Source of the DNA: a bacterium
GTDB lineage: Bacteria > Patescibacteriota > WWE3 > 2-01-FULL-39-13 > JAACPI01
Direction of reading: 5' to 3'
Assembly: GCA_009995545.1 (NCBI GenBank)
Contig: JAACPI010000002.1
Coordinates: 2,965 to 66,964, forward strand
DNA: 64,000 nucleotides
The notes below the pieces were generated by a model, which saw only the letters and a list, made by a program, of their open reading frames with translations, searched no databases and was not told the origin of the DNA. A program made the position numbers and the translations under genes. Below are positions 42,170 through 48,127 of the stretch, piece by piece; positions within the stretch are counted from its first letter, which is position 1; the number at the start of each line of letters is the position of its first letter.

Positions 42170-42178
42170 TGATATAAT
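42170..42178 (+). promoter_or_regulatory. extended -10 promoter element (TGaTATAAT) upstream of WxL-like gene
   Basis: TGATATAAT 25 nt upstream of ATG 42203; followed by 11-nt SD AGGGGGTGAT. Confidence 0.35.
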
Positions 42179-42202
42179 TTTTAATATTAGGGGGTGATAT
42201 TT

Positions 42203-42814
42203 ATGAAAAAAAGAAGACTTACTAAAAGTCTAATAACAATACTGCTACTTTCAATAGTTGCAATACCAACTACATATGCTTCTTTAGTAACAAATACTGT
42301 TGCTTTAGCAGGCAATACCGTAAATACAGCCACTGCTGAGATGGCTATCTGTAATAAAGATGGTGTAGATTCTTGGATGACAACTCTTACAGGACAATCA
42401 TTTACTGTAAGTAATTTAGCACCCGGAAGTATTTCTTCACTTTTTACCGATAGAATATACGTTGGAAATGATGGTGGTAATTTAGATAGCTCAACTGGGT
42501 GTTCTTCTTACGATGCCTCTTACACGCCAGGAACTTCTGCCATAAATATGGAAATAGTTCCTAGTTTAACCAATGTAAATTGTGGTAGCACCTTTGACTT
42601 ACAAAACGCACTTCAGGTAGAGTTTGTTGTTGGTGGGGTTTCCTCAGATTACCAATCTCTAAACAACTGGTCATTTAATTCAACTGCATTTGGAAGTACC
42701 CTGTTACCAGACGACGCTCAAACAATTGAAGTTAACACAAAACTTTCTAACGACTTTGATGTCCAGGGAGGTACCTGTTCTTTCGATCTGCAATTAAAAG
42801 GAAGACAAATCTAA
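42203..42814 (+). CDS. secreted WxL-domain-like surface protein (small)
   Basis: Signal peptide; Thr/Ser/Gly/Asn-rich beta protein; NNWSFNSTAFGS and C-terminal GGTCSFDLQL resemble the two WxL blocks; start moved to ATG with strong SD. Confidence 0.45.
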   Translation: MKKRRLTKSLITILLLSIVAIPTTYASLVTNTVALAGNTVNTATAEMAICNKDGVDSWMTTLTGQSFTVSNLAPGSISSLFTDRIYVGNDGGNLDSSTGCSSYDASYTPGTSAINMEIVPSLTNVNCGSTFDLQNALQVEFVVGGVSSDYQSLNNWSFNSTAFGSTLLPDDAQTIEVNTKLSNDFDVQGGTCSFDLQLKGRQI

Positions 42815-42824
42815 AATAACTTAT

Positions 42825-42860
42825 ATTATTAGTGAGAGGGTTTAAACTCTCACTAATAAT
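42825..42860 (+). promoter_or_regulatory. intercistronic stem-loop (14-bp perfect stem, 8-nt loop)
   Basis: tattattagtgagag-ggtttaaa-ctctcactaataat between WxL-like gene and sipW-like gene; no T-tract. Confidence 0.4.
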
Positions 42861-42865
42861 CAGTT

Positions 42866-43417
42866 ATGAAAAAATATTTGTTACTTTCTCTAAAAACCTT
42901 AAATATACTTATATTACTCTGTTTTACTTTTTCGACAGTGCTAGTTGTCGCCAACCTAGGCTTTATACCCTTAAAATATCGCGCTTTTGCTGTAGCTAGT
43001 AGGAGTATGTATCCTGTAATGGAAAAGGGGGATTTAATATTTGCAGATAGATCTGGAAATCAAACCTATAATGTGGGTGACATCGCGGTCTTTGAAGAAC
43101 CAGGTTATAAAAACCGGTTTGTGGTACATAGAATTGTAGAATCTACCGAACCAGGGTACATAACCAGAGGAGACAACAATGCCGCTAACGATAATTGGGT
43201 AGTAAATCAAAGTAGCATACAAGGAAAGTACATTAAAAAGATAGCAAAACTTGGAGATTTTTTGCTGTTTTTAAGAACCCTACCAGGAATAATTATTTTT
43301 ATAGTCATACCAGTCATATATTTAGTAGCACTAGAAGTAAATGTGATAATAAATGAGGTTATAGAACACAGAATGCGCAAAGCGGCTAAACCAGAAAGTG
43401 TAACTTCTATCAAATAA
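42866..43417 (+). CDS. signal peptidase I, archaeal/SipW type
   Basis: N-terminal TM, VASRSMYPVMEKGDLIF (S26 SxSMxP box) and HRIVE region; C-terminal TM as in SipW. Confidence 0.7.
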   Translation: MKKYLLLSLKTLNILILLCFTFSTVLVVANLGFIPLKYRAFAVASRSMYPVMEKGDLIFADRSGNQTYNVGDIAVFEEPGYKNRFVVHRIVESTEPGYITRGDNNAANDNWVVNQSSIQGKYIKKIAKLGDFLLFLRTLPGIIIFIVIPVIYLVALEVNVIINEVIEHRMRKAAKPESVTSIK

Positions 43418-43511
43418 ATACAGCCTGTAAGATAGTAGAAAGTTTTATAGTGTGCACAAATAACCTTTTCAAAATAAGATATTCTTTTTAATTAACTATA
43501 TAATTATCTTT

Positions 43512-46117: not shown

Positions 46118-46124
46118 GGCAAGC

Positions 46125-47075
46125 CTACTTTTTTATTCTTGACGAAGTAGAGCGTCTTACAATAGAAACAAACATCAATAATAAAAATATAAAAGAAATA
46201 GTTATGGCTATCTTAGCCTTTTTTGTAACATAAAAAATTTCAACTTCTTGTTCAGAAATTTCGTTTACCTTATCACCATAATTAACCTGTGCTTTAACAA
46301 TATATTTTCCAAGCCATGCTGATTTGTCCCAAGTAATAGGCACTTCTGTAGGACTTCCGGGTAAAACTAGACGTAAGTCAATGGGAAAAGTTTCTGCAGT
46401 AGCACCTGTAAAATAGTTTATAATTTTAATTTCCCCTTTGGGTTCTAACCGAACGTTACCGTGATTAGTTAATCCAAAATCCATGCCTACTTTGTCATTA
46501 TCATTAAGACTCGCCGTAAATTTTGTGATTTCTAGATCTTTTTTTAATTCCCCAGGCACATTTAAGTAAAACCTAACCCCTACTCTAGTCTTTATAGCTA
46601 GCTGTAGCCCACTGGACTCTCCCTGCTCACCTTTTTGATCAGTTTGAAATACAGAAATTCCTCCTAAGTAGTCCCCGGATTCAGTACCCTTTGGAACATC
46701 TACTTTAAAGGGGATTGTTATGGATTCATCATTAGCTAAAGTTATTTCTTTTTTCTCTACTGCCAACCATTTGCCTATGTGATTCTTTTCCTCCCCAGGG
46801 TTCTCTAATGTAAAAGCGCCGTCTTTTGTAGTCAACCCATCGGCAGCCTCAATCACAAAATTTCCAGATTTTCCGGTACCGTTGGTAACTACGATAGAGT
46901 TTTTATACTCCTCACCGGGGTAAAGTTCCACCTCGAATCTACTCTTTGTAGTGGGGTCTGAAGGATTGTAATCTTTTGGAAAAATATTCACACCACCAAA
47001 ATTAGCAGCACTGATTACACCCATGTTTAAAAATATTAAGCTAATTAAAGATATTAAAAAATTATACATATTCAT
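46125..47075 (-). CDS. DUF916/DUF3324-like cell-surface protein with C-terminal TM anchor
   Basis: Signal peptide, SGDYLGGISVFQ motif, C-terminal TM IAITISFIFLLLMFVSIV + RRSTSSRIKK; paralog of 44936..46117; stop is 8 nt from next start. Confidence 0.45.
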   Translation of the reverse strand: MNMYNFLISLISLIFLNMGVISAANFGGVNIFPKDYNPSDPTTKSRFEVELYPGEEYKNSIVVTNGTGKSGNFVIEAADGLTTKDGAFTLENPGEEKNHIGKWLAVEKKEITLANDESITIPFKVDVPKGTESGDYLGGISVFQTDQKGEQGESSGLQLAIKTRVGVRFYLNVPGELKKDLEITKFTASLNDNDKVGMDFGLTNHGNVRLEPKGEIKIINYFTGATAETFPIDLRLVLPGSPTEVPITWDKSAWLGKYIVKAQVNYGDKVNEISEQEVEIFYVTKKAKIAITISFIFLLLMFVSIVRRSTSSRIKK

Positions 47076-47090
47076 TTATTTTTAACCCTT

Positions 47091-47108
47091 CCCTGCCTTT
47101 TGGCAGGG
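47091..47108 (-). promoter_or_regulatory. stem-loop between WxL-like gene and first DUF916-like gene
   Basis: ccctgcc-tttt-ggcaggg; 3' arm overlaps SD-like GGGAAGGG of downstream gene on minus strand. Confidence 0.35.
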
Positions 47109-47133
47109 TTAGGTTAAAAATTTTACTTAACTA

Positions 47134-47751
47134 CTAAATTCTAGTAACAATTACTTCACCTGTGTAAGAACCAGCTTCTTGGTTAGGATCTACAATAAGA
47201 TCGAAACCCATATCTAGTTGGTAATTACCTTGTCCATATCCAGAACTTGCAACCATAACGGAGAAAGCGTCAGAGACTCCATCCCCAACTGTAGTAGCGT
47301 CAGTAATCACAGAACCTGTTCCAGCGGAAACATTAGTAATGTCTGTACCTGTAGCAGGAGTTACTGTACTAAAGTTATTAGAGAAATTAGTAACAGGTAT
47401 AATAATTCCCGTAGGGGAACCGGCAACCTGTTGCGCTAATTCCGAAATAGTAGCTGTAACACTCCAACCTGCTGGTGTATTAGCACCACGTGCATCATCC
47501 ACCTCAACTAAGATATCGCTAGTGTCATTACCTGCAGACAAACCAGTGTAGGTTTGTTGTTGGATTGTTGACACAGTAATAGCATGTAACCCCGCCGTAG
47601 GATCTACAGTAAGAGTAAAATTACCCTGATTAATGGTTAACGAAAGGTTAGTGGAATCTACAGTAACATCTGCTGCGTAAGCAGGTATTGCAACTATAAG
47701 TGTAAGAACTAGAGATAACACAATAGCCATAGATGTTTTTTTATAGGCCAT
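47134..47751 (-). CDS. secreted WxL-domain-like surface protein (small), paralog of 42203..42814
   Basis: Signal peptide IVAIPAYA; AGWSVTATISEL and C-terminal AGSYTGEVIVTRI resemble WxL blocks; ATG at 47751 preceded by SD AAAGGAGGTGAT. Confidence 0.5.
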   Translation of the reverse strand: MAYKKTSMAIVLSLVLTLIVAIPAYAADVTVDSTNLSLTINQGNFTLTVDPTAGLHAITVSTIQQQTYTGLSAGNDTSDILVEVDDARGANTPAGWSVTATISELAQQVAGSPTGIIIPVTNFSNNFSTVTPATGTDITNVSAGTGSVITDATTVGDGVSDAFSVMVASSGYGQGNYQLDMGFDLIVDPNQEAGSYTGEVIVTRI

Positions 47752-48127
47752 GTATATCACCTCCTTTGGGCAGAAGTTTGTAAAGCATTACCTATATTAG
47801 AATACAGAGCATACTAAACTGTCAAGGTAGTCAATGACACAATTTTTATAAAAGGCCTTCACACATAGACGTAATATGACTCTAACAATATTGTACCTGT
47901 ATATTTTATATGTAGTAAATACTGACTCAAACAACATGCCCTTATGTCTTTCATATACAAATAATACTTATACATTAAGTATCTATAAAATATCTAATAT
48001 GACTCATTTAATTTTATCTACTATAACTATAGGTAATAATTAAAAAAGAGTCTTTTTAAGCGCTCAAGTAATTTAACACAGAATCATTACATTGCGAAGT
48101 TTGAGATTGTAAATCATAATAATATTA

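Novelty: a csc-like locus with its own SipW-type peptidase, in a reduced-genome lineage, is unusual. It could encode an abundant surface fibre or adhesion complex.
How to check it: HMM searches with PF13731 (WxL), PF06030 (DUF916), PF11797 (DUF3324), TIGR02228 (SipW). Pairwise alignment of the three C-terminal domains. AlphaFold multimer of WxL-like + DUF916-like pairs. Proteomics of cell-surface fraction. Check conservation of the locus across related genomes.
What would refute it: No significant WxL/DUF916 HMM hits and no structural similarity; or the signal peptidase belongs to the ordinary LepB type; or the proteins lack signal peptides on careful prediction.
Basis: partly seen in the sequence, partly recalled or inferred. 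Interest (0 to 1): 0.75.

Follow-up and report, generated by a model that had tools for sequence, protein, structure and literature searches.

Two surface-protein modules appear to lie side by side in the DNA analyzed here, which comes from a probable ultrasmall bacterium of the Patescibacteria. The first, module A, pairs a TasA-like fibre subunit with a SipW-type signal peptidase, and the second, module B, is a four-gene WxL/WxLIP cluster. This reading, to which a probability of about two in three is assigned, is based on the family and fold assignments of the gene products and on two independent synteny patterns. Both modules are of known kinds, ordinary in nature and very divergent. The whole 64-kb stretch of DNA is referred to below as the window; the six open reading frames of the locus (g1 to g6) were found at the coordinates given to them earlier, and all of their products appear to be secreted or membrane-anchored. 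The first-pass annotation had drawn them together as a single csc-like locus with its own SipW-type peptidase; the WxL cluster and the adjoining SipW-type peptidase are indeed there, but the peptidase goes with the TasA-like gene.

The TasA/AbpA-like protein and its signal peptidase

The first gene of module A, g1 (42203..42814, plus strand), encodes what is predicted to be the major fibre subunit, a TasA/AbpA-like secreted protein of 203 aa. Cleavage is predicted between Ala26 of TYA and Ser27, leaving a mature part of 177 residues, and four cysteines are conserved. The family is small and unmodelled, comprising 43 representative clusters among 1.8 billion. Three WxL-like proteins had been claimed for the locus, which holds for g3 and g6, by PF13731 or paralogy, but not for g1: its BLASTP similarity to these two proteins stops at the signal peptide, Pfam gave no WxL match, and profile-profile comparison with the WxL type reached a probability of 11% over 23 columns, confined to the signal peptide.

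The affinity of g1 is with TasA. Profile-sequence alignment of its family to Bacillus subtilis TasA (hhalign) gave 85% probability and an E-value of 5.8e-6 over 64 columns, a span which includes the signal peptide; residues 1-27 of the TasA sequence used, taken to be its signal peptide, supply TWA and about one third of the aligned columns, and the mature residues 28-261 agree with PDB 8aur. TYA↓xF of the family falls in register with TWA↓AF of TasA, and the alignment runs on through the first strands to a common L-x-PG(D/E) block. The only recurring NCBIfam model is the "SipW-dependent-type signal peptide" (TIGR04088), matched below the cut-off by 11 of 39 family members, at best with 17.3 bits (cut-off 19) and with 32 of the 34 model positions covered; g1 itself did not match it. 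No match at E <= 1 to PF12389 (Peptidase_M73, TasA/camelysin) was found for g1 or any of the 39 members. The P1 residue is alanine in 38 of the 39 and P2' is aromatic in 30 (Phe in 28, Tyr in 2), being leucine in g1 itself. The aromatic P2' agrees with the feature that is reported to make TasA a poor substrate of LepB (PMC10269814).

The model of the g1 monomer has a jelly-roll/beta-sandwich fold, whose nearest solved counterparts are the TasA fibre, with moderate similarity, and the archaeal AbpA pilus. After AbpA, the Foldseek list is filled by subunits of donor-strand filaments, i.e. CfaB, FimA, PapA, Saci_0406 and CanA. In these chaperone-usher and archaeal thread/cannula filaments the sandwich is completed by the N-terminal strand of a neighbouring subunit. 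As is predicted for g1, their subunits have an incomplete Ig-like/jelly-roll sandwich. The likeness is one of fold only: chaperone or usher genes are absent from the locus, which also differs in the type of its leader and peptidase. The stretch of mature g1 that is best conserved, residues 27-50 (2.65 versus 2.05 bits), overlaps a segment (residues 20-46) which lacks secondary structure in the model, with pLDDT below 50 over residues 22-31 and of about 63 over 31-40. The donor strand of TasA occupies residues 28-38, right after the cleavage site (PMC9674648), and residues 27-50 of g1 are proposed as a donor strand. We regard g1 as probably belonging, as a divergent member, to the TasA/AbpA superfamily, whose fibre subunits are joined by donor-strand exchange.

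The adjoining gene, g2 (42866..43417, plus strand), codes for a signal peptidase I of the archaeal/ER (SipW) type, 183 aa in length, with one N-terminal and one C-terminal TM helix. Enzymes of this type carry a histidine where LepB has a lysine. The earlier assignment to the archaeal/SipW rather than the LepB type was borne out, since g2 scores 84.2 bits with TIGR02228 (cut-off 51.85) and 34.2 bits with the bacterial-type TIGR02227 (cut-off 47), and has the Ser-His residues. Its catalytic motifs, kept in four aligned homologues, are Ser47 in SRSMYP, His88 in VHRI and GDNN at positions 102-105. With the Bacillus SipW equivalog (NF046067) it reaches 52 bits, far below the cut-off of 190; judged by its sequence, g2 is a generic archaeal-type enzyme and not a SipW orthologue.

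The pairing of the two genes recurs. A SipW-type gene directly follows the g1-family gene in all five other loci (L005, L008, L009, L010 and L011), and 80 metagenomic SipW-type loci contain five more such pairs. Among the four distant loci, L009 (16.7 kb of context) and L011 are the ones whose flanks are long enough to judge, and in both the pair has neither WxL nor WxLIP genes nearby. Because the pairing recurs and the WxL module also occurs without the peptidase, g2 in all likelihood belongs with g1. The Bacillus analogy raised earlier, in which SipW is dedicated to TasA, was thus the right lead applied to the wrong substrate.

Alternatively, g2 might be the general signal peptidase of a reduced genome, and g1 a non-polymerising beta-sandwich protein (lectin, adhesin or matrix protein) with a TasA-type leader. 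A second signal peptidase or LepB-type gene was not seen within the 64-kb window, the fold likeness of g1 to TasA is no more than moderate, and the four conserved cysteines, which TasA lacks, suggest a disulfide-stabilised globular protein. Yet the strict pairing in the five other loci and in the five further metagenomic ones argues for a dedicated relationship, the best-conserved part of g1 is, in the model, an unstructured N-terminal segment, as expected of a donor strand, and donor-strand filament subunits dominate its fold matches. This alternative is accordingly considered quite unlikely.

Very strong ribosome-binding sites had been reported for the two small genes of the locus, and both were confirmed: the Shine-Dalgarno sequence of g1, AGGGGGTGAT (42189..42198, plus strand), was read directly and recovered by pattern search, and that of g6, AAAGGAGGTGAT (47755..47766, minus strand), was read directly. 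The latter contains the sole perfect GGAGGTGAT in the window, and the HU gene (26533-26805) has GGGGGTGAT, with the same core as that of g1. The ATG start codons at 42203 and 47751 are also correct as first assigned, the upstream GTGs falling within the Shine-Dalgarno sequences. Between g1 and g2 lies a stem-loop (42816..42867, plus strand) with a 14-bp core at 42825-42860 and no U-tract, a folding energy of -23.5 kcal/mol (z -7.4) and a 3' side that extends to the start codon of g2. Stable hairpins of different sequence occupy the equivalent position in L005, L009 and L011, and the element is likely to stabilise or attenuate the transcript, setting a high g1:g2 ratio. From the strong Shine-Dalgarno sequence and the stem-loop after the gene, g1 would be produced in large amounts; once exported, it would be cut after Thr-Tyr-Ala26 by the adjoining g2. 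The cut would free a strongly conserved N-terminal stretch, some 20 residues long, which is proposed to enter the beta-sandwich of the following subunit as its donor strand and so build an extracellular fibre.

The WxL/WxLIP cluster

The genes g3, g4, g5 and g6 are contiguous and form a WxL cluster as defined by Hassan et al. (2023). The product of g3 (43512..44939, plus strand; 475 aa), the large WxL protein, has a C-terminal WxL domain at about residues 330-475, which scores 39.4 bits with PF13731 (cut-off 25), and a beta-rich N-terminal region with a weak Big_7 match. Its signal peptide is weak, lacking charge in the n-region and reaching a hydropathy of 1.6 in none of its 19-residue windows; among its orthologues in L005, L012 and L016, that of L016 has a clear signal peptide. 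The small WxL-type protein g6 (47134..47751, minus strand; 205 aa) is in its mature form essentially one WxL-like domain. It found no match in the Pfam search and is a paralogue of the g3 C-terminus (BLASTP E 6e-12); its L012 homologue scores 24.7 bits with PF13731, against the cut-off of 25.

All the peptide blocks quoted for these proteins in the first-pass annotation are present, although listed there in an order that differs from that of the genes: DGWSLTMTASDF and AGSYKAILYFTLL sit in g3, AGWSVTATISEL and AGSYTGEVIVTRI in g6, and NNWSFNSTAFGS in g1. The first WxL motif reads W-S-L in g3 and W-S-V in g6, and in contrast to canonical WxL proteins it takes the form W-x-V/T/A among the small proteins. 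In none of the nine aligned sequences does the second motif retain a Trp (F-T-L in g3, and F-S-L, V-T-R-I and L-S-I). The two Trp-x-Leu motifs that serve as a criterion of WxL domain proteins are thus not found together in g3 or g6.

The partners of these proteins are two paralogues of the WxLIP type. The 316-aa g5 (46125..47075, minus strand) consists of a signal peptide, a PGBD (DUF916), a second Ig-like domain and a C-terminal TM helix, with hydropathy peaks at residues 6-29 and 283-306. It scores 43.2 bits with PF06030 (cut-off 27.3) and matches the solved Enterococcus faecium WxLIP1 (9i1y/9i25) with an E-value of 3e-4 alone and 7.5e-13 as a profile, in a PDB alignment that ends after the first domain; its second region has a weak CARDB match (E 3e-4). 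The 393-aa g4 (44936..46117, minus strand) has a signal peptide, two beta-sandwich regions and a TM helix, with hydropathy peaks at residues 6-24 and 274-300; beyond the helix it continues into a conserved tail some 95 aa long. The PF06030 score of g4, 25.4 bits, lies just below the same cut-off. The paralogy proposed for the two was upheld by BLASTP (E 6e-10), a common G(D/E)YLGGI block and a C-terminal hydrophobic helix in each. As for the proposed DUF916/DUF3324 architecture, the DUF916 part, the signal peptide and the TM helix were recovered, but DUF3324 (PF11797) gave no match in g4 or g5 at E <= 1.

L012 and L016 (Patescibacteria group bacterium UBA1400, a GTDB Patescibacteria genome) keep the gene order g6-g5-g4, with g3 convergent, and L013 keeps part of it; all three loci lack homologues of g1 and g2. 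Conversely, none of the 80 SipW-type loci had WxL/WxLIP genes of this type within 10 kb, as searched with HMMs of the Patescibacteria type only, which could miss canonical Firmicute versions. Module B is thus probably independent of g1 and g2. By analogy with the proposal for Firmicute WxL loci, the membrane-anchored g5 and g4 would hold g6 and g3 at the cell surface through WxL-WxLIP interaction, and the N-terminal region of g3 would be ligand-binding, in a putative adhesive role.

These data also bear on the earlier model of a single csc-like complex of three WxL-type proteins with a dedicated signal peptidase. The WxL type of g3 and g6, the WxLIP type of g4 and g5 and the position of the peptidase gene inside the cluster speak for it, yet g1 shows no WxL similarity by any of the three methods applied and matches TasA/AbpA instead, and the same WxL cluster occurs without a SipW-type gene in L012 and L016. 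Furthermore, no functional link between WxL proteins and SipW was found in the literature, where one review names both terms. The model is thus very improbable.

Adjacency of the two modules

The genes g1, g2 and g3 run head to tail on the same strand, with gaps of 51 and 94 bp, so that the genes for the peptidase and the large WxL protein may be co-transcribed. Their juxtaposition is kept in L005, the sole close relative available, in which all six genes stand together. The two modules might then form one integrated system, in which the g1 fibre is nucleated or anchored on a WxL/WxLIP platform, g3 is TapA-like and the SipW-type peptidase processes several proteins. The co-directional genes with their short gaps recall tapA-sipW-tasA, g1 and g6 have similar signal peptides (IVAIPTTYA versus IVAIPAYA), and strand complementation is common to both modules, since the WxL sandwich is predicted to be completed by a strand donated from WxLIP (PMC10599100). 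In more distant relatives, however, either module is found alone, and L005, at about 80% identity, is too close for the kept adjacency to imply selection. The mature N-terminus of g3 is unlike the N-terminal segment of g1. As for g6, its N-terminal motif recurs unchanged in L016, which has no g1, so that the motif is a feature of the WxL domain and not a mimic of the donor strand. An integrated system is therefore unlikely, and the preferred reading is that modules A and B are separate, their adjacency being, on balance, specific to this lineage.

A specific arrangement of this sort, in which the two modules are wired into one host-attachment filament with the g1 fibre cut by a private peptidase, anchored on WxL/WxLIP and served by g3 as a TapA analogue, is rather improbable. 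If true, the filament would be of a type so far undescribed in Patescibacteria, in a bacterium which is probably episymbiotic and has a reduced genome.

Relation to known systems and significance

Module A resembles the B. subtilis TasA/SipW system (tapA-sipW-tasA) and archaeal AbpA in its secreted subunit, about 200 aa long and of beta-sandwich/jelly-roll fold, in a TasA-like leader with cleavage, predicted for g1, at (T)(Y/W)A↓x(F) and a conserved segment straight after the cut, and in an ER/archaeal-type Ser-His peptidase encoded beside the subunit. Unlike TasA, mature g1 has 177 residues instead of 234 and bears the conserved cysteines; it also departs from both systems in its lack of a PF12389 match, its sub-threshold family matches to TIGR04088 and the order of subunit followed by peptidase, and no TapA-like nucleator or anchor and no AbpB-like gene were recognised. 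The WxL (csc) clusters of Lactobacillales and Bacillales resemble module B in having a small WxL-only protein (here g6), a large one that ends in a WxL domain (g3), and a WxLIP which, like g5, is built of a signal peptide, a PGBD, another Ig-like domain and a TM helix. In contrast to canonical csc loci, the cluster has two WxLIP paralogues, one with the post-TM tail, no DUF3324 match and no LPXTG (CscD-like) protein. The probable patescibacterial host sets it further apart, as WxL proteins are described as occurring "almost entirely" in Lactobacillales and Bacillales (PMC10599100).

The present work leaves the understanding of these systems unchanged, and its gain lies mainly in annotation, given a divergence such that current family models miss half of the genes, and in targets for cryo-ET or proteomics. 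The g1 family extends the TasA/AbpA donor-strand fibre superfamily, of which it is probably a member, with a cysteine-containing branch, and module B extends a WxL system thought to be almost confined to two orders. The conserved tail of g4 bears on the question of which membrane the WxLIP helix occupies. Patescibacteria live attached to other cells, and to our knowledge their surface structures, type IV pili excepted, are poorly known. The locus provides two concrete surface candidates, a putative TasA-like fibre served by its own peptidase and a putative WxL/WxLIP adhesion cluster.

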